A stretch of DNA of 64,000 bases from Callorhinchus milii (Eukaryota). The stretch covers positions 43,216,001 to 43,280,000 of the forward strand of contig NW_024704742.1 of the NCBI RefSeq assembly GCF_018977255.1, read 5' to 3'. The notes under the pieces are model-generated. The model was given only the letters and a program-made list of their open reading frames with translations, was not told the DNA's origin and made no database searches. A program made the translations under genes and the position numbers. This document shows, piece by piece, positions 4,069-60,362 of this stretch (positions within the stretch are counted from its first letter, which is position 1; every line of letters begins with the position of its first letter).

Positions 4069-4074
4069 ACTGGT

Positions 4075-4393
4075 GGAGTCCTGTAGCTCAGTGGTTAGAG
4101 CACTCGCTTTGCAAGTGAGAGACCTGAGTTCAATTCCAGGCAGAGGGGGAAACCTTGGGCAAGTTTCCCTACTCCACACGCCTAATAATAATCCCTCCAA
4201 AACCAAAAACAATAATAAATTGGTCATTTTCAATCTACGACTGTTTGTGGGACATTGCTGTGCGCAATTGGCTGCCGCGTTCGCCCACAAATATACAGTC
4301 AATTCACTTTACAGTGTGTTCTGTGAAGCGCTTTGGGATGTCCTCCTGACATGAAAAGCACTATATTAAATGCAAGGATTATTATTATTATTA
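4075..4393 (+). mobile_element. tRNA(Ala-like)-derived SINE family A, short form, young copy
   Basis: Intact head with anticodon arm ctcgc-tttgcaa-gtgag (TGC), A/B boxes, Deu-like core, (ATT)n tail; nearly identical to the inverted copy at 10911-11233. Confidence 0.95.
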
Positions 4394-4687
4394 CTTCTCC
4401 GTCTTACTTGTTGTAGGTTAATTGAATCTTCATGCTGATAACCTTTCACTGTGCTTTGTCATAGGATGATATGGGAAGTGCCAATAAAGAAAGTCCTTCA
4501 GCACATTGATCTCATTCGTCCACAATGCCCACCCTACCATTATGGCATCAAATTGTTATCTAAATTAATTCAGTTCCTGGCCTCAACCATCGGGTTCCAC
4601 TATTATTCACCAAATGTAAAGAAATACTTCCTGGCATTTAGAATTGCCCAACACAACCTTCTTGCCCTGCTGTCTTGGTGTGTCTTT

Positions 4688-5733: not shown

Positions 5734-7316
5734 ATCATAGAATCATAGAATTGTACAGCACAAAAAAAGGCCATTCGGCCCATCGAGTTTGTACCGGCTC
5801 TTTGAATAGAGCAATTAAAGTCAATCTCACTCCCCAGCCCTTTCCCTATAACCCTGCAAACCTGTCCTCCTCAAATACCCGTCCACCGCGTTTTTAAAAG
5901 TAGTTATCGAATCGGCCTCAACCACCCTTTCAGGCAATGCGTTCCAGATTCGAACAACTCGCTGCGTGAAAAAATTTCTTCTCACCTCCCCTCTGCTTCT
6001 TTTAGATACTGTTTTGAATCTGTGACCTCAAGTCACCGACACACCCACCAGTGGAAACAGTTTTTCCCTTTCTAACCTATCAAATCCCCTCATGATTTTG
6101 AAAACCTCTATTAGGTCTCCTCGTAACCTTCTCTGCTCCAATAAGAATAATCCCATCCTCTCTAGCCTTTCCTCATAATCAAGGTCCCTCATTCCTGGTA
6201 CCATCCTCGTAAATCTCCTCTGCACTCTTTCCAATGTCTTAACATCCTTCCTATAGTGTGGTGTCCAGAACTGGGTGCAATATTCTAACTGAGGCCTAAC
6301 CATTGTTTTATATAGGTTAATCATAACCTCCTGACTCTTGTACACTATGCCCCTATTTATAAAGCCTAGTATCCCACATGCCCTTTTTACAGCTTTACTT
6401 ACCTGTCCTGCCACCTTCAAGGATTCATTTATCTGCACCCCTAGGTCTCTCTGTTCTTTTACCCCCCTTAAGATTGTATTATCTCGCCTATTTTGCCTCC
6501 CGTCTTTCTTTCTTCCAAAATGCATTACCTCGCATTTCTGCACATTGAAACTCATCTGCAATGTGTCTGCCCAATTTACCATTCTGTCTATGTCTTTCTG
6601 CAGTTGGCTCCTATCCTTCTCACTGTTTACTACCCTACCTAACTTTGTGTGGTCCGCAAACTTCGTATATCCAAGTCCAGATCATTTATGTATATTACGA
6701 AGAGCAGTGGTCCCAATAGCGATCCCTGGGGGACGCCACTGTACACTTCCCTCCAGTCAGAAAAGCAGCCATTCACCATAACTCTCTGCTTTCTGTCTCC
6801 CAGCCAATTCTGGATCCATACTGCCATGGCTGTCCCTAATTAACCCATATACTTCTTAGCGAAGATGTATTCTGTCCCGGATTATAGTCTCCAGGAGTTT
6901 CCCCACTACTGATGTTAGGCTGACGGGCCTGTAGTTCCCAGGTTTATCCTTCTGCCCCTTTTTGTACAGGGGAGTAACATTAGCCACTCTCCAGCCCTCT
7001 GGCACCACTCCTGTGTCCAACGAAGATTGAACAATTGTAGCCAAAGCCTCCGCTATTTGTACCTGTGCCTCCCATAGTAACCTTGGCTGCATCCCATCCG
7101 GACCAAGTGACTTATCTACCTTCAGCGCAGTCAACCTTTTCAGTATTTCCTCTCTGTTTATACCTATCCTATCCATTTCCTCTACCCTCTTCTCCGATAC
7201 TGCAGCATTTGGTGCATCCACTCCTTTTGTGAAGATAGATGCAAAGTACTCATTCTGTACGTCAGCCATGCCCTCTGCCTCCACAATAAGATTTCCGCCT
7301 TGGTCCTTAATTGGGC
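5734..7316 (-). mobile_element. 5'-truncated CR1 LINE (ORF2 reverse transcriptase remnant)
   Basis: (TTCTATGA)n tail at ~5734-5750; ORFs 6856-7284 (NYRPVSLTSVVGKLLE), 6639-6827 ([14 protein letters not shown]), 6028-6582 (LYKTMVRPQLEYC, RRLRGDLIEVFK); frameshifts and deletions. Confidence 0.97.
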
Positions 7317-8429
7317 CATGGGGGAAATCTTATTGTGGTGGCAGAGGGCATGGCTGATGTGCTGCAAATCAGATTGTCATCCACTCAAACATGGCCCCAT
7401 AAAAGTGAATCAAAGAATAGCTCATGAATTTTTAAGGGGAGTTTTTCATATTAATAAAGAGGCGTCATCGCACAATGGGAATTACAGATCTTTCAAATCT
7501 CTCCTCGTCTATTCCATCAGGATAAAGTAGCCATGGGGTGCCAGCGGGATAATATAGAACATAAAATACAAACTTACAGTGAAATAGTTAATTGTTTGGC
7601 TTTGGTGACTAGTTTTATTTGACTTGCCTTAAATTGTGAGGGCCTCCACCAATATGTTCCCATGCATTTTTTTAAAAAAGACTCCTTAGAATACAAAAGC
7701 ATGGTAGTTATGGTACAATCAAGGGTATTCATAGACGATTATTTTTTAACTAATTTGTAGCCTGGTGACCCAAAGTCTGAATTAGACTGTTCATTTGGAC
7801 CAGCCATGGTGACTGAGGGGGAAGAAATGGGAGAATCTCTCTCTGTTATAATTTTTTTTAGAAAAGGCCAGTCCTTCACAAAGTGTGTGTTGGTTGGGGT
7901 GGATGGGTGGGGAAGGGCTGTCATCCATGTTATTTTAATTGGCTTAATTTCAGCCACGTTTGAGTTTTATCCCAAAGGATGAATGGCAGGGTTATCTGGA
8001 GAATCACTGGCCAGGGCAGCAGGAGAAACTCCCTTCTCTTTTTGAATAGTGCCAGGGGATTTAACATCCAAGATTGCCTTCTCCAAAGGACAGCACATAT
8101 GATGCTCCCCCAGTACTGTTCAAAGTCCCAACATTAGGCTTGAATCCCCAACCTTCTGAGGCAGAGATGACAGTGTTACTGATTGACCCAAGCTGAATAT
8201 GTATTACACATTCCCGTTTCAATTTGCTATGTGCTTGCCACAGTATTCTACTCATCTTAATGGGATTTGAGGCAATCTTTGAAAAACCTGCAGCAATGAA
8301 ATAATATTGTGTAACAAAATATTGAAGTTTGTGCTACAATATTGCTTCAGGGATTCCAGTTAGATGTACAATTTAGCAAAACCAGCTCCTAACCACAGAA
8401 ACTTTTGTAAAGTTCATTTCCAACCATCC

Positions 8430-10162: not shown

Positions 10163-10910
10163 AACTGCTGTTGGGGATGATTTCTTATTCACTCTGTCAA
10201 TCACTTGCAGGAAGTGAGAGAAGCAATTCAAGCAACATTGAGATAATAATCACATACACAGAGTCCAAATGCTACAATAATCTGATAGCCACAGTGAAAA
10301 AACATTATGTATTCTATGGCCAAAATTGTTTAATAGATTTTTTTAAAAAGATTGGGTACCATTTACATGTTCATCAAAATGAGAACCATCAGTGTTTGGG
10401 AAATGACTATTTCTTCCACTACTGTCACTAAGTGTCAGTATGAAGCAGTTTCACATCAGTGTGAAGCAAGTGAGCAATTTACGCAGATAACACGTCATTG
10501 TTTAAGTAAAAAAAAGTCTGCAAACAACAAAACACAATCCTTGAAAATCTAGTTAAAAATCAAGGCAAGGACCCTACTTCAAAGAGAACCCTGTTGTGCT
10601 TCATTATCTCTTTTCATTATAAAGAGAGAGAGAGTTCACTCTAAGATTAGACAATTGTACCAGCTAGCAGTTCAAAGAGGTCTTACAATACAAATTGCTC
10701 TATTTGAGAGATCTTGTTCCTGTAGGAGGGGAGTTGATGTGTCACAGAGAAGGCAAACTGCCTGTTCCTAAGAGAAGGATGTTTACCGTTTTTTAAAAAG
10801 AGCATGTGTTCTTAGAGCACCTTATCAGCTAACAAGATAATTACTATCAAATGTCTACATTAGACACTTAGACATAAATTGTTGTGCAGCAACAATTTAA
10901 ACCAATAAGG

Positions 10911-11233
10911 TAATAATAATAATAATTCTTGCATTTGATATAGCGCTTTTCACGTCAGGAGGACGTCCCAAAGCGCTTCACAGAACACACTGTAAAGTGA
11001 ATTGACTGTATATTTGTGGGCGAACGCGGCAGCCAATTGCGCCCAGCAATGTCCCACAAACAGCCGTAGATTGAAAATGACAAATTTATTATTTTTTTTT
11101 GGTTTTGGAAGGATTATTATTAGGCTCTGTGTGGAGTAAGGAAACTTGCCCAAGGTTTCGCCCTCTGCCTGGAATTGAACTCAGATCTCTCGCTTGCAAA
11201 GCAAGTGCTCTAACCACTAAGCTACAGGACTCC
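10911..11233 (-). mobile_element. SINE family A, short form, young copy
   Basis: Reverse complement nearly identical to 4075-4393; (AAT)n at left end. Confidence 0.95.
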
Positions 11234-11642
11234 ACAAGGTACCACAGCCTGATGATGAATGACCAATTAATCCAGAAAATTATTGGCCAAGACACTGGGA
11301 GAACGTCCCTTTTATTTTTGATAACTGGCAATGGATCTTTAATGTCAATGTGAACAAGTATACAGATCCTCAGTTTAACTTATCAACTGAAAAAATAGCA
11401 CCTCCAATTCTAAAACAGTGTCTTCGTGAAGAATATGGTTTTGAGTCCTGATGTAGGGCTTGAATCCAGAGTGATAGTGCTACCAACAGAGCCAAGCTTG
11501 TACAAGACAGGCTGATAGAATTTAAAGTCTGCAGCTTTTTAAAAAGATCAAAAAGGAATCAGCTGTTTAAAAGGGTACATGATAAACCTATTAAGAACTT
11601 TCTCTTTGTTGTGCCAATAGCTTTCTTAGGTTTTATATTTTA

Positions 11643-17949: not shown

Positions 17950-18620
17950 GTCCACAGATGTTCTCAGTGATTCCAAACATTATCATGATGTCAAAGCTGT
18001 AAACCACCAGGATGAATCCAGAAATCATGAATTTACGTCATGAGGAAAATTTTAAAAAAACTGACAAAATGCAAAATACTGCAGATACTAAAAACAGAAG
18101 TTGCTGGAAACACTCAGCAGGTCAGGCAGCATCTATTGAGAAAGGAAAGTGAGTCAACGTTTTGGGTCCACGACCCTTCGTCAGAACAGAAATTTTGACG
18201 AAGGGTCGTGAACCCGAAACGTTGACTCACTTTCCTTCCTCCACAGATGTTGCCTGCTGAGTGTTCCCAGCGACTTCTGGTAAAAAAGCTGAGTCTGTTC
18301 TCTTTGCAAAAAAAGAAATTTTAAGATGATCCAATTGAAGTTTTCCACAATTAGACAGAAAACTGACAAAGCTGATGTAGGCAAATTGTTCACTGTGGTG
18401 AAAGGTTCAGATACCAGGGGACACACGTTAATAATGTGCTAGCATGCTTAGACTTGTGGAATAAATAATCATTTCAGCTGACAGTATAAATGGGTTCAAC
18501 AGCCAACAAGCCACATTTCAAGAGTGAGAAAGGAGAGAGGATTATGGTGAGAAGCTGGCTTGGTGGGGTTAAGAATCAAAAAGCAATCAGTTTCTTCAGG
18601 TTTAATGTCCTTTTCCTATT
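17950..18620 (+). mobile_element. Old CR1 3' remnant hosting a palindromic element
   Basis: Sequence across the insertion reads ..HEEN.KKLSLFSLQK.. and ..DPIEVF.., the degenerate CR1 ORF2 C-terminus. Confidence 0.65.
18065..18280. mobile_element. Palindromic Penelope-like non-autonomous element with hammerhead-like motifs
   Basis: ~90-bp inverted arms around 18188-18193; (C/T)TGACGA-A-GGGT..ACCC-(G/A)AAACGTT on both strands; flanking direct repeats taaaaaa(a/g)ctga at 18053-18064 and 18281-18292. Confidence 0.8.
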
Positions 18621-24519: not shown

Positions 24520-25090
24520 TGACAGCGAGTTTCAGACGAAGAAAGCTCATTGACCTGTTTGATCTCATCCTTCCAGAATACTTAACCTACTGTCTTCCCA
24601 TTGCAGCATCAAACTGCTTCTTAAAAAAAGGCAAAATACTGCAGATGCTGGAAATCTGAAATAAAAACAGAAATCGCTGGGAACACTCAGCAGGTCAGGC
24701 TGCATCTATGGAGATGGCAGCATCTGACAAAAGCTCAAATGTTAACTCACTTTCCTCTTTCCATAGATGCTGCCTGACCTGCTAAGTGTTCCCAGCAACT
24801 TCTGTTTTTATATTTTATGCTTCTTAAACAAGTCCATTATTGGAGCCTAAGCGGCACTTCCTACTTCTAGTTGTTGACTGTCCTCAATATAAAGAAACAC
24901 CTGTTTGCGTCTAAAATTCTAAAATTGCCATTTACAGCCCAGAACCTGTGCCTTTTGTTCTGCTTCCTTGGCCCATCTGATAGTATTGTTTATTTGCTCA
25001 ATCCAATTTAGCATTTTATATACCCTATTAAATCCATCTGAGATGTCTCATTTCAAGGTCAGAAAAGCCTAACTTCTCCACTTGAACCTC
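24520..25090 (-). mobile_element. Old CR1 3' remnant hosting the second palindromic element
   Basis: ctgagatgtctcatttcaaggtcagaaaagcctaacttctcc is the reverse complement of an EKLGFSDLEMRHL-type CR1 motif. Confidence 0.6.
24626..24817. mobile_element. Palindromic Penelope-like element, copy 2 (centre deleted)
   Basis: Same arms as 18065-18280 (aaaatactgcagatgctgg...ctcagcaggtcagg / cctgacctgctaagtgttcccagc); perfect 11-bp flanking repeat tgcttcttaaa at 24615-24625 and 24818-24828. Confidence 0.82.
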
Positions 25091-26107: not shown

Positions 26108-26530
26108 TGTCAGCTTGGCTCCGTTGTGGATCAGAAGATTGTGGATTCGAGTACCAAATCAGGATTTGAACTCACACAGTCTAAGATGATACTCCAATGG
26201 AGTACTGGGGAGGTATTGCATTGTCGGAGGTGCCGTTCTTTGGATGAGACTTTAAACGAAGGTCTTGTCTACCTGTTCAGGTGGATGTTAAAGATCCCCT
26301 GGCACCATTTGAAAAGAGAAGGGAGTTTCTCCTGGTTTCCTGGCCAACAATCACCAAATAAAGTGTTCATTCACTTCATGGCTGTTTGTGGGACATTGCT
26401 GTGCACAATTGTGCTGCGCATTTGGGTACAAATAGACAGTCACTCCATTTCATAGTAAATCCTATGAAGCGCTTTGAGATATCTTTCCGATGTAATAAGG
26501 CACTATACCAAGGCAAGGATAATTATTATT
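26108..26530 (+). mobile_element. DeuSINE family B
   Basis: Head tgtcagcttggctc, Deu domain tgcattgtcggaggtgccg..caggtggatgttaaagatcc, tail gcaaggataattattatt. Confidence 0.9.
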
Positions 26531-26945
26531 AAAAAAACTTGCTTTCGACATTGTCAAAATGACACAAAGTACTTCACAAGATTTACTGCAAAGTACATTG
26601 ACTGTGTATTTATAGGCAAGCATGGCAACCAATTTGCACATATTCCCACAAATAGCTATGAAGTTAATGACCAATTTTTATCTGTAGGATTGTTTAGTCA
26701 GGTTAGGGAGAAGCTCTCTTGTCTTTTCAAATACAGTAGTGCTATGGGATCATTAATGTCCATCTCAACAGATAAACTGAACCTTGGTTTAATGTCTCAT
26801 TCAAAGAATGCCACCTCCAAAAATGCAGCACTCCCCCACCATTGTATTGAAGTGTTAACTTAGACTAAAAGTTTCCAATCTGGGACATAATCCACAACCT
26901 TCTAACTCAGAGATGGCAGAGCTAGCAACAGAGCCAAGATGATAC
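26531..26945 (-). mobile_element. DeuSINE family B, tail-to-tail with preceding copy
   Basis: Reverse-strand head tcatcttggctctgttgctagctctgccatctctgagttagaaggttgtgg, Deu domain, tail abutting 26530. Confidence 0.85.
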
Positions 26946-35114: not shown

Positions 35115-36715
35115 CACTGTACAGATTTCAGATCCGACCTGGGGTCAGGGAGGGAGAAGCGAGGGGAGGGGATGACCGATGGCATGGTCGAAGAGGAGGG
35201 TTTTGAGGCGGGACTTGAAGAGGCTAAGGAGGGGGCAAGGCGGAGTAATTGGGGGATGGCATTCCAGAGGTTGCGGGCAGAGTGACTGAAGGCTCTCCCG
35301 CCAATGGTGGGGCGGGTGGGTCGGGGGACGTGGAGCAGGCCAGAGCCGGCTGAGCGGAGGGAACGGGCGGGTTGGCAGGGGGTTAGGAGGTCGCAGAGGT
35401 AAGATTGGGCGAGGCCATGTTGGGCTTCGTAAGTGAGGACCAGGATCTTGAACTGAATCTTCTGAAGGATAGGGAGCCAATGGAGTCAGGCGAGAATGGG
35501 GGAAATGGGGTCATAGAGTTTGGTGCAGGAGAGGACACGGGCTGCAGAGTTCTGGATTATCTGCAGCCTGTGGATGGAGGAGTTGGGAAGGCTGACAAGC
35601 AGGGAGTTTACATAGTCGAGCCTGGATGTGATGAAGGCACGAACGAGAGTTTCAGCGGCCTGAGGATTGAGGTAGTGGCGGAGTCGGGCGATGGTGAGGG
35701 AAGGTAGAGCGGGTCATGGCTTGGATGTGGGGAAGAAAAGACAGTTGAGGGTCGAACAAGACACCTAGGTTCCTGACCGGCTTGGTGAGTTGTAGTGTGC
35801 AACCATCGAGGTTGATGCTGGTAGAGTCACTAATGACTCGGACGCTGGTGCGAGCCAATCAGGAGGGCCTCAGTCTTGTTCACATTCAACTGTAGGAAAT
35901 TTGCCCTCATCCAGGACTTGATGTCCGACACGCAGCCTGTCAGGACAGCAGTGATCCAGGAGTTGAGGGTGGAGGCAGAAAGATAGAGTTGGGTGTCATC
36001 CGCATACATGTGGAAGTTGACCCCATGTCTGCAGATGATGTCACCAAGGGGGAGCATGTAGATATTAAAGAGGAGAGGGCCAAGGGCAGAGCCCTGGGGG
36101 ACACCAGACATGACAGTGTGGGGGCTGGAAGAGAAACCGTTAGAGGCAACAAAGTGGAAACGGTGAGAGAGATAGGAATCGAACCAGGCAAGGGCAGGTC
36201 CGCGAAGATTAAGTAAAGAGGAGAGGCAGTAGTCGACAGTGTCGAAGGCGGCAGAGAGGTTGAGGATGCCAAGGAGGTGGAGGGAGCCCTGATCACAGAT
36301 GTTCAGAATGTCATTAGTGACTTTGGCCAGGGCAGTTTCTATGCTGTGGACAGCGTGGAAGCCAGATTGGAGGGGTTCAAAGAGGGAATGGCGAGAAAGG
36401 AAGGAGCAGAGCTGGGACTCAACGATTCATTCCAGGACCTTGGAGAGGAATGGGAGGTTAGAGATGGGGCAGTAGCTGGAGAGGAGGGAAGGGTCCAGGG
36501 AAGGATTTTTCAGGATGGGGATGATGACGGCTGTTTTTAGGGGAGTGGGAACTGAACTGGTGGACAAGGAGAGGTTGATGACATCGGACAAGAGAGGGGC
36601 CAGAAGGTGGAGCTGAGGAATGATGAGAGAGGTGGGGATGGAATCGAGGGAGCAGATGGTGGATTTGAGTTTGCGAACGAGGGCGCTGAGGGAAGAGGGA
36701 GATGTAGGGTCGAAG
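35115..36715 (-). mobile_element. 5'-truncated L2 LINE (ORF2 RT remnant)
   Basis: ORF 35830-36111 SGVPQGSALGPLLFNIYMLPLG..FHMYADDTQLY..NFLQLNVNKTE; VRNLGVLFDPQLSF; FKSRLKTLLF. Confidence 0.96.
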
Positions 36716-37135: not shown

Positions 37136-37984
37136 TCAACATGCAAATGTCTTGATTCACTTCCACCAAATATATTTTATAGCATTAAGGGCATCAACAC
37201 AAAGTAGATACAAATAAATCCTGAATTCCATTGTAGTAAAAGCTGTTTTAGAATTGATTTTATAGAGGTTGCAATAAAGTAAATCTAAAAGGTAGTGGCT
37301 TTCAGTTACATTGAACCCATAAGGTTTATCTCTAATTACAAAAGCACATTAGTGTCTGTTAAAAGTGGAATGTAAGAAAATACAGAACTTCATATACCTC
37401 TTGCCTTGTAATTTTGTTTTATCGTCAGTTTGATTAGAAAATATATGCAATGGGCAGGATCACATTTATTGTTAGTGGTGCTTCCCAGACACAAGTTTTA
37501 AGAGAAGCTCAGGCTTTATCTTTGCAGCTCCTGCCTACTTCAACACCTATTTGAAGCAGGTCTAACACAAATGAGCACAAAATGAAAATAAGAAAGTTAC
37601 AATACTGTTACAATGGTAATGACGTACATATGATGCTCTGGAGGAGATGGACATTATGTCCCAAGGTCCTGTTCCAACAAGGGACGTCATTTACACAGAT
37701 ATTTTTTCTGACAAATGCTTTTTAAACTATCTTTGTTCTAATGTTGAATAGGTTTCCTTCACTCTTCAACCATGGTCATTTATCGACCTCTACTATGTCT
37801 CTCAATCTACGACATCAGTAACATTAATTTAGAACCTTTCATGCCAGGAGGATGTCGCAAAGCATTTCACACAGCTGGAGGAGGGAGCTGAGAAGTTGGG
37901 TAGAAATTGACCATAAGCAGTCGAAAAGTTAGAGATAGAATGAATAGGTGGGCAATCTAAACAAACAGTCTTGCTGATTCTAAT

Positions 37985-38771
37985 AAAATAAACATCGTTA
38001 CATTTGATATATTGCCTATAATTTTAAAATGTCTCAAAGCTCTTCATAGGAATTTCTGCCAAGTGTAGTGTATTTGTAGGCAATGTGTATTTGTAGTGTA
38101 TTTGTAGGCAATCGCAGCTATTGTTTTGCACACAGCAATATCCCACAAACAATCATGAAGTAAATCATCAATTGATCGGGAGGATCGATGATCAGGATAT
38201 TTGGAGAAACTCTCTTCTCTTTTCAAATGGTGTCATGGGATCTTTGATGTCCTTTGAACGGCAGTTTACAATATCATCTGAAGTATAGCATCTCTGATTT
38301 GTACAAATCGTATAATCTCCTTAAGTTTTACATCTGCCCGAGTCCAGTTGAATTTCCTATAACTTATGCAAGTTTAACATAACTCATACTTTGCATAAGT
38401 CATATTAAATGTAAGGTCCTAATTCATATGACTTATGTGAGGTTTATTGCAGTACAGTATTCTCCCAGATTTGCGCTAGAAATCTGGGAGAACACTGGGC
38501 AGATGTACGACTTAAGGCGATTATACGATTTGTACAGATCAGAGATACTATACTTCAGATGATATTGTAAACTGATGTTCAAAGGACATCAAAGATCCCA
38601 TGCCACCATTTGAAAAGAGAAAGGAGCTTCTCCAAATATTCTGGTATAGTATTCTCCCAGATTTGCACCAGAGTGTCAACTTGGACTGTGAGCTTGAAGT
38701 CTTAATGTGTAGTTTGAACCTGTATCCTTTGACTCAGTGCGAGAGTGCTATTAACTGAGCCAGGCTGACAC
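37985..38771 (-). mobile_element. DeuSINE family B containing a complex inverted duplication
   Basis: Reverse-strand head tgtcagcctggctcagttaatagcactctcgc at ~38740-38771; Deu domain and tail at left; internal fold-back 38193-38643. Confidence 0.88.
38193..38643. repeat. Inverted repeat with 147-bp arms (38193-38339 / 38497-38643) and nested hairpins
   Basis: Manual alignment gives 12 mismatches in 147 bp, no gaps. Confidence 0.95.
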
Positions 38772-39413
38772 ATTTTGTATAATGTCATCCAGTTCTGCTA
38801 ACAGAGTTTAATAGACTCCCATCGGAGGCGGCTAAGCCTATGTTGATCGACTTCTTTAAAAAAACGACTTAATGAATATCAGATTAAGAACATGATTGAA
38901 AGTTATAAGGATAAGTATAGACATAGATGACAAAACACTCAGTAAAATTCAATGGTTTGTATGCTCTGCGACCATGGCAATTCCATCTGTGGAACACAAT
39001 TGCTCAAGGTTGAATAAATTAAAGATTGTAAATTTGGGAGTGATATCATTTAATTCTGACCTTCAGAGGTCAGAGGAAATTTTCAGAGCTTTGTCTTCTT
39101 GAAGGTTTTACTTGGCCTATTCACATCCCTCGGGAGTTTAAATAAGTTGGGTAAAATCCATGATAATACAAATTTTATATAAGATGTGGAATGAATGGGC
39201 TAAGTGGCACAAATGGCCCCTTAGTGTTCCATTCATTTGTTTCTTATATTCTAAATTTCAACCAGTATTTCAAGCTAATAAAATAAAAACAAATCATTCT
39301 CCTCTCATTCGAACTTTGCCAAGTCACAGCTCAATCCCTTTTTCAAACCGTAACAGAACACTTTCTGAGGGACCAACGCCCTGTTTATCCTGCAGAGTTA
39401 GCATTGATTCAAA

Positions 39414-42100: not shown

Positions 42101-42260
42101 GGAAATAGAGTTGAACAACTACTTTGACCACTGGCTCCTGTCTTCTTGTTGCTTCACCACGCTTCTCCGATACTGATCTAGCAAGAATACAGCAGGCAAC
42201 TTTCGCAAATGTAAGTCTTTCCTTTAGAACTACAATATAATATTTAGTTGAGCTCTTCCN

Positions 42261-59137: not shown

Positions 59138-59960
59138 GTCAGTCTGGCTCAGTAGCACTCTTGCCTCTGATTCAAAAGGTTGTTTGTTCAAGACCCACGT
59201 CGGGACTTTGAGCAATTATTGGAGCATTCAGTGAATGATAAAATCTTCACACTGTTTGGTTTGCTTCCACTTAAAGTGACGAGTCCATTAACTGTTTAAT
59301 TCACACACATACAATGCAAAGGCCATGAAAAATATCATTTTAATTTGCTCTAATGTGTTTTCTCATGAAATACAACACCATCTAATCTTTGTATAAATAT
59401 ATGCTTCACTAGAGGACAATTCCTTCAAAGAGTGCAATGGCTCAGACACATAGATCATATTTTACAAGATTAGCAAATGAAATGAACATCAAATGGGCTT
59501 TTTCTCCATTCTGCGGGTATATTTGCTGCTCTTTGGTGGCATGTCTATTATCTTCTGCTTTTAATTAAATGCACTAACCATTGGTGGTGTGAACATACAA
59601 CTTTTAGTTGAAGTAGACACTCTAATACAGTGCTGGAGCAATACTGCATTGTTGGAGGTGCCATTCTTTAGATGAGGCATTAAACCAAGATCCCAACTGC
59701 CTATTCAAGTTAAAGATCCCATGGACTACTTGAAAAGAGAAGGGAGTTTATCCCAGTGTACTGGCCAACAATCCTCAAATAAAATTGGTCACTCATTTCA
59801 CTCACTCACTTCATTGCTATTTATTGGAGATTGTGGTGTGAATTGGCTGCTGTATTTGCCTACAAAGTATATAGTCACTACACTGTACAGTAATTTCTGT
59901 GAAGTCCTTGAACAAATCCTCCCAATGTGAAAGATGCTTTGTCAAATAATGATAGTAATA
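59138..59960 (+). mobile_element. DeuSINE family B split by the unclassified element (59211-59596)
   Basis: Head tgtcagtctggctcagtagcactcttgcctctga..gggactttgag; SINE resumes at ~59600 with gacactct..tactgcattgttggaggtgcc. Confidence 0.85.
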
Positions 59961-60362
59961 AATAATAATAATCCTTGTATTCGATATCTCGTCTTCGAGA
60001 TGTCTCAAAGCGCTTCACAGAATATATTGTAAAGTGGATTGACTGGCGAAGCAGCAGTCAGTTTATGCACAGCAATGTCCCACAAAGAGCCATGGAGTGA
60101 ATGACCAATTTAATTTGGGGGATTGTTCGCCAGGACACTGGGAGAAACTCCCTTCTCTTTTCGAATAGTGCCATGGAATCTTAACGTACACCTGAACAGG
60201 CAGAACAGGCCTTTGCTTAACGTGTCGGCATCTCCGACAATGCAACACATGTCAAACAAGGCATTGGAGTGCAGACTAGACAATGTGATTCCAAATCCCA
60301 ATATGGGCTTGAACCCACAACCTTTTAATTCAGAGGCAACAATGCTACCATTGAGCCTGACT
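59961..60362 (-). mobile_element. DeuSINE family B, tail-to-tail with preceding copy
   Basis: (AAT)n ccttgtattcg tail; cagcaatgtcccacaaa; head region gggcttgaacccacaacc..cagaggcaac. Confidence 0.88.

Follow-up and report, generated by a model that had tools for sequence, protein, structure and literature searches.

Local template switches that leave inverted copies behind have been described in several systems. Templated lengths in the hominid gold set of short-range template switches have a median of 12 nt and a maximum of 128 nt, and many of these events have point 4 before point 1 in the four-point model (PMC7954356). Yeast double-strand breaks can receive inverted insertions by fold-back; these are up to about 150 nt long and are joined through 0-5 nt of microhomology (PMC11724301), and human germline templated insertions were found to be complex in 33 of 103 and 26 of 99 cases (PMC8421209). 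Polymerase theta extends stem-loops after priming from two terminal pairs (PMC11292364), and template switches can seed miRNAs (PMC10710096).

We analysed a locus at which a SINE contains a piece of another repeat together with a long inverted copy of parts of both. We lean towards a history in three layers, namely the SINE, then the repeat piece inside it, and later one fold-back template switch. The long inverted arm is directly visible in the sequence, and its geometry suggests a fold-back template switch as the mechanism that made it. The features are given below in coordinates of the 64-kb window, that is, the whole stretch of DNA that was analysed; X2, X3 and X4 are samples introduced further below.

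37980 to 38297, minus strand: 3' part of the host SINE (body and tail), by alignment to other copies in the window
38193 to 38339, plus strand: arm 1, the template, with 105 nt of SINE and the first 42 nt of the insert, by self-alignment
38296 to 38309, no strand: palindrome of 14 nt at the left junction, near chance level
38298 to 38449, no strand: insert, 152 nt belonging to an interspersed repeat of high copy number, by depth and contigs from other loci
38340 to 38454, no strand: stretch of 115 nt missing from the inverted copy (skipped or deleted later), with a 1-nt junction overlap
38452 to 38480, plus strand: SINE restart (from 38450) and copy 1 of the direct duplication, its 3' end being the turning point, by alignment
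38455 to 38497, no strand: fold-back tip with an 18-bp stem, a 7-nt loop and one mismatch, by self-alignment
38497 to 38643, minus strand: arm 2, the inverted copy of arm 1, differing from it at 12 of 147 positions, by self-alignment and contigs from X2, X3 and X4
38644 to 38672, plus strand: copy 2 of the direct duplication, return to the original template, by alignment
38644 to 38772, minus strand: 5' part of the host SINE, a decayed tRNA-like head, by alignment to other copies in the window

The window has a GC content of 37-47% per 2-kb bin and is animal DNA rich in repeats, and a tRNA-headed SINE is present in many copies across it. A Pfam search with 27 of the 35 long open reading frames gave a single match, to a reverse transcriptase, and 101 of the 207 short non-repeat open reading frames, those in 22-54 kb, gave none. 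The single match marks a LINE remnant (RVT_1, E 2.8e-20) at 35833-36426 on the minus strand, about 1.8 kb from the hairpin. The assembly has a single N in the window, at 42260.

The structure is hosted by an old SINE, probably derived from a tRNA, that lies on the minus strand. Its sequence is 25.7% diverged from the majority sequence of 13 further copies in the window, compared with which it carries a 14-nt deletion peculiar to itself. When its head was aligned with six tRNA-like matches in the window, between 0 and 31 of 500 shuffles aligned as well, and ARAGORN called no tRNA gene at the head. The host is a putative member of the SacSINE1 or DeuSINE type, and it may resemble the DeuSINEs, with their Deu conserved domain and L2-type tail. 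Like SacSINE1-type DeuSINEs of cartilaginous fishes, as described in PMC5499810, it has a tRNA-like head and a length of about 430 nt, and the SINE copies of the window lie 15-28% from their local majority, next to a mean of 22.4% given there for SacSINE1-CM. Within the host SINE, at 38064-38112, we observed a 28-nt tandem duplication with 21 nt identical, another local copying slip.

An earlier sequence-only reading had the SINE stop at about 38297, and the alignment to the 13 other copies bears this out: the SINE breaks off at 38297 and restarts at 38450 in the same register with zero bases lost. The reading was also right that the SINE resumes, with the correction that it does so at 38450 rather than at 38455. 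Self-alignment reproduced the 147-nt arms with 12 mismatches that had been reported; they are 91.8% identical, and the mismatches comprise 8 transitions and 4 transversions. The tip, too, is as it had been described, with an 18-nt stem (38455-38472 with 38480-38497, 94% match) around a 7-nt loop. The strand was said to rejoin the SINE through a repeat at 38648, where an exact 19-nt repeat does lie, but the full direct repeat is 29 nt long (38452-38480 and 38644-38672, with 3 mismatches). Because the direct repeat has this length, the 7-nt loop is plain SINE sequence; the loop and the SINE are identical at 6 of 8 positions (p about 0.006). The 9 nt at 38644-38652 also match arm 2 in reverse, at 38545-38553, through either a C-to-T change in the direct repeat or an additional tiny templated hop. 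The folding of the 611-nt region has a z-score of -23.8 against 20 shuffles.

Common to both arms are the 14-nt deletion of the host, 19 substitutions outside the 13-copy majority, and 42 nt of the insert. Since arm 2 thus carries the deletion, the derived substitutions and a piece of the insert, it was copied from this particular SINE. In the SINE part, 2 private substitutions fall on arm 1 and 4 on arm 2, with 2 unassigned between the arms, and two further changes on arm 1, at 38327 and 38328, were polarised by the commonest other letters in reads of the repeat family. The presence of private changes on both arms indicates that neither arm overwrote the other. As the sequence stands, the three junctions overlap by 1, 1 and 0 nt, although 8% decay could have erased short junction matches, and microhomology of at least 2 nt is absent at all three switch points.

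Other inverted repeats occur in the window. An inverted SINE pair at 4070-4394 (plus strand) and 10910-11238 (minus strand), 6.5 kb apart, is 93.6% identical over 329 nt; a third such copy at 45359-45674 matches at 87%, and the remaining matches at 70-83%. The pair could reflect a young subfamily, conversion or an inverted duplication. Related palindromic elements at 18095-18279 and 24661-24811, with self-complementarity of 82% and 75%, are 90% alike over 74 nt and probably represent a fold-back repeat family. A hairpin of about 100 nt at 7259-7360 is 86.5% self-complementary, and the region around it has a related copy near 30.2-30.5 kb. At 26178-26866 and 59697-60203 we found close inverted pairs of independent old SINE copies, which are 69% and 66% alike as against 92% for the arms.

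For comparison with other samples, 24 sequencing runs were listed, and 87-99% of sampled words were found in four samples of one study. The 24 runs all bear a single species label, and RNA runs are absent among them, which has no bearing on expression. Contigs were compared from four of the 24 runs, namely X2, X3 and X4 from one study, which may include the assembly's own source, and X5 from a second study; the comparison covers 32 of 31,531 pieces, 40 of 72 variant rows and 15 of 121 joints. One contig each from X2, X3 and X4 contains the hairpin tip and the two junctions on its right with 0-1 differences. These own-locus contigs (38390-38871 in X2, with 0 differences; 38390-39400 in X3 and X4, with 1 difference each) have single-copy depth; each continues past the skip junction, across arm 2 and past the return junction until it reaches unique flank. 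The left junction is bridged by an X2 contig at 38216-38390 with 0 differences. Among the contigs listed, none bridges 38390 and none spans the whole structure, and among the rows listed X5 has no own-locus piece on the structure. An empty-site joint is absent from the 15 listed of the 121 joints, a set too partial for the structure to be called fixed; a joint between 38372 and 38496 was seen, the sides of which are ambiguous. The X3 contig over the hairpin (38390-39400) has a depth of 8.0 versus 13.6 in the left flank, and this drop could come from library bias against hairpins or from a heterozygous state. The inverted duplication is real, and an artefact is unlikely because the arms are 8% apart, mostly through transitions. 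The proposal of an old, real and local event has therefore held, with divergent arms, host-specific marks in both of them and contigs from other samples.

The insert is a high-copy repeat. The depth of the bin 38377-38457 was 13,514, 20,729 and 13,771 in three runs, against 8.2, 13.6 and 7.8 for unique flank, and the resulting ratios of 1652, 1524 and 1775 give an order of magnitude and not a true copy number. Matches from other loci account for 18 of the 32 listed pieces (of 31,531), with both studies represented; jointly they cover 38293-38453, and none alone spans all 152 nt. Their pooled difference from the insert is 15.8% (about 84% match) over 14 of the 18 listed pieces, the other 4 having been set aside because they seemed to show one locus again in a further run. 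The commonest alternative letter at 38376 and at 38414 occurs in 122-125 contigs of X2 and X3, where counting went to 128. BLAST and nhmmer found no second copy of the insert in the 64-kb window, a 23-nt core of it had no match in metagenome contigs, and its right-end motif gave loose window matches only. A 9-nt motif search gave 4 matches window-wide, against 6.6 expected, 3 of them inside the hairpin structure.

The inverted pairs that had been noticed at 38362-38400 and 38394-38437 are indeed there, one of 10 nt (38362-38371 with 38391-38400) and one of 12 nt (38394-38405 with 38426-38437). No shuffle out of 5000 reached both of these lengths together; among 3144 other windows 11 did so, and these lie at 3 places. 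They are made of three of the five degenerate copies of a motif of about 11 nt, which lie in both orientations in the insert, and the family variants listed (40 of 72 rows) leave the motif cores in place. The inverted motifs are family features, brought along with the repeat. The perfect palindrome of 14 nt at 38296-38309, to which significance had also been attached, exists but is weak evidence, as its length was matched in 90 of 5000 shuffles, the window has 10 palindromes of at least 14 nt, and its copy in arm 2 is imperfect.

The right edge of the insert carries an uncertainty of about 5 nt. Among the pieces listed, those from other loci mostly stop at 38443-38453, and one contig runs on past that end, showing the terminus followed by TA. 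The first 7 letters of this terminus, read inward, are those with which the pogo_NA terminal repeat begins in Table 1 of PMC3845634. The insert resembles the pogo/Tigger-type MITEs treated in PMC3845634 and PMC9219625 in being short, non-coding and high-copy, and the latter source gives TA duplications and terminal repeats of 18-23 nt for Tigger elements of cartilaginous fishes. Unlike these elements, the insert is not flanked by a TA duplication, its right terminus is two letters off, and a left terminal repeat was not found. The best match between the insert ends was equalled by 394 of 2000 shuffles, so that no paired terminal inverted repeat was found, and in place of a TA target-site duplication there are only 3-nt repeats near both edges, the one common to both arm versions requiring one extra SINE base. 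The insert is probably a remnant of a pogo/Tigger-like miniature DNA transposon, an assignment that the terminus suggests and that serves as a lead only. A Penelope-like end was rejected, as Rfam gave no hammerhead at E up to 10 and 38290-38545 has neither a strict nor a relaxed hammerhead core. Helitrons are characterised by an insertion site between A and T and a CTRR end. A Helitron was likewise rejected, the site lying between A and C and the end being a misfit.

In the three-layer history, the SINE came first, inserted on the minus strand, and 152 nt from another repeat, one of high copy number, would then have landed in it with their inverted motifs included. Later 192 nt were added, by what would have been one fold-back template switch. 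The 3' end at 38480 would have turned back on its own strand across the 7-nt loop and been extended along it by 18 nt, after which the copying strand would have jumped to 38339, skipping 115 nt, and copied 147 nt to 38193. Rejoining the original template at 38452 would have created the 29-nt direct duplication, and the product would thereafter have decayed neutrally. The simplest geometry would be a stalled fork or a staggered break that left about 29 nt single-stranded, so that self-copying would end at the border between single and double strand near 38452-38455. The skip may thus start 3 nt from the return point because self-copying stops at the border of the duplex. Several observations weigh against this history: the junction overlaps are only 1, 1 and 0 nt; the 165 nt copied in two pieces exceed the 128-nt maximum of the hominid gold set (PMC7954356); the ages of insert and duplication are inseparable (6/90 versus 8/194, Fisher p = 0.38, from a partial variant table); and no ancestral allele or orthologue was seen. 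Two candidate causes of the skip were rejected. Bypass of a hairpin has little in its favour: of 99 windows with similar GC, 8 reach as good a fold as the skipped stretch, where the predicted stems begin some 26 nt in from the left skip point. A spliced intron fails because GT..AG ends are lacking in either register and on either strand.

The right terminus of the insert (38449), the return point (38452) and the start of the skip (38455) all lie within 6 nt. The return point is just beyond where a TA duplication would sit, and a predicted stem closes at 38451. It is conceivable, if improbable, that the end of the repeat, as a miniature transposon, triggered the fold-back; the initial break would have come from a transposase nick at one end of the element, or from the stalling of a fork at its hairpin. 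Among the papers listed by a literature search there was no direct precedent linking MITE ends to inverted duplications. If this trigger were true, abundant MITE ends would be a source of new long hairpins in the slowly evolving genomes of cartilaginous fishes.

The same arrangement might have arisen in two steps: the fold-back would first have yielded a complete inverted arm of 280 nt closed by a 7-nt loop, and a later 115-nt deletion from arm 2 would have widened the spacer and stabilised the palindrome. Long near-perfect palindromes are unstable, which speaks for such a deletion, and a skip and a deletion cannot be told apart by sequence alone. However, the edge at 38454/38455 is only 3 nt from the return point at 38452, which one event explains and two would produce by chance, and the 18-bp tip was retained; we regard a later deletion as rather unlikely. 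A single repair event could instead have patched a break in the SINE by copying 152 nt of the repeat at a distant locus, the same strand then running on, folding back and rejoining. Such an event would suit the absence of a target duplication and of a matching left terminal repeat, the proximity of insert end, return point and skip start, and the inseparable ages, and multi-template germline insertions are described in PMC8421209. Against it, the insert apparently stops at the family's own end, judging by the listed pieces and by the one contig with a transposon-like end, and such a stop is accounted for by transposition and not by random capture. The copies at other loci, moreover, differ by about twice the arm divergence, and a single repair event seems to us somewhat improbable.

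An origin through LINE endonuclease and reverse transcriptase would make the 29-nt repeat a target-site duplication round a 163-nt insert copied locally from a strand or a transcript, the enzyme having jumped the structured 115 nt. The direct repeat does flank the inverted insert exactly, and the RVT_1 remnant shows that LINE remains lie nearby, but the inverted insert holds no LINE or SINE tail, its copy begins 8 nt from the end of the repeat, which is the geometry of self-priming, and the skipped stretch has no GT..AG ends, just as 38290-38545 has no hammerhead core. This makes a LINE event quite improbable. The sequence-only reading had attributed 38298-38454 to synthesis de novo by repeated snap-backs at one break, the insert being built of serial self-copies, and inner inverted pairs beyond chance and the lack of a second insert copy within the 64-kb window are what such synthesis would give. 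Yet the insert is multi-copy, the very outcome against which that reading had staked its proposal: its depth is about 1,500-1,800 times that of the flank, some three orders of magnitude, contigs from other loci appear in two studies, and the motif cores are intact in the family variants listed. Serial self-copying is refuted as the origin of the insert, and we give it hardly any credence. Its suggested agents, polymerase theta or MMBIR, cannot be named from junctions that share 1, 1 and 0 nt; these overlaps are shorter than the two terminal pairs used by polymerase theta, and hence no enzyme is nameable. An assembly artefact would be compatible with three confirming samples from one study, possibly including the assembly source, and with the lack of an own-locus piece from X5 among the rows listed; it sits badly with 12 arm differences showing an excess of transitions and with junction contigs that are single-copy in depth and continue into unique flank. 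A repeated SINE subfamily, which had been suggested as a possible refutation, is contradicted by the 13 of 13 other window copies that have neither insert nor arm. An artefact or a subfamily is accordingly very unlikely.

Taking the duplicated DNA in total, 16 of 194 sites differ, or 8.2% (CI 4.8-13.0). As this is far less than the 25.7% of the host SINE, the duplication came late, when about four fifths to five sixths of the SINE's life had passed. At 4% per arm, it would be about 40 or about 250 million years old at the two rates quoted by PMC5499810, if those rates apply. There was no sign of function in Rfam, where no family came near its gathering score, or in the arm mismatches, which have no G-U bias on either strand (G-U versus A-C 5:3, p = 0.73). 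Nor does anything at the locus suggest that the switch seeded a miRNA. The locus adds one more germline template-switch scar, longer than most and easy to read with an old SINE as a ruler. It also illustrates that an insert may owe its inverted motifs to the repeat family from which it comes, and copy number should be determined first, before such motifs are called self-copies. Its importance would be greater if the ends of this repeat family turned out to be over-represented at fold-back duplications, or if there were transcription and processing of the 147-bp duplex.

The fold-back belongs to a class of template switch already described, and is longer than usual for it. In the four-point model, the points are 38480, 38472, 38193 and 38452, which gives the order 3-4-2-1; point 2 thus comes ahead of point 1, an arrangement that allows a switch within one strand (PMC7954356). 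It corresponds to the '4 before 1' events of Walker et al. 2021 (PMC7954356), in which the return lies upstream of the turn and the outcome looks like one large insertion. Unlike those events, it contains one extra internal jump, from 38455 to 38339, and its direction is read here from SINE copies, not from an outgroup. As in the yeast insertions (PMC11724301), a 3' end folds, copies its own strand and joins with little microhomology, 0 nt in our case; the yeast events differ in being primed by 10 nt of inverted microhomology, of which 1 nt remains here, and the 29-nt direct duplication and the internal skip set our locus apart from what that text describes. The human germline events of PMC8421209 have microhomology at most junctions, whereas 1, 1 and 0 nt are left here after 8% decay. 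Like the MMBIR-type events among them, the present structure combines more than one nearby template with a change of strand and persists as a germline variant.
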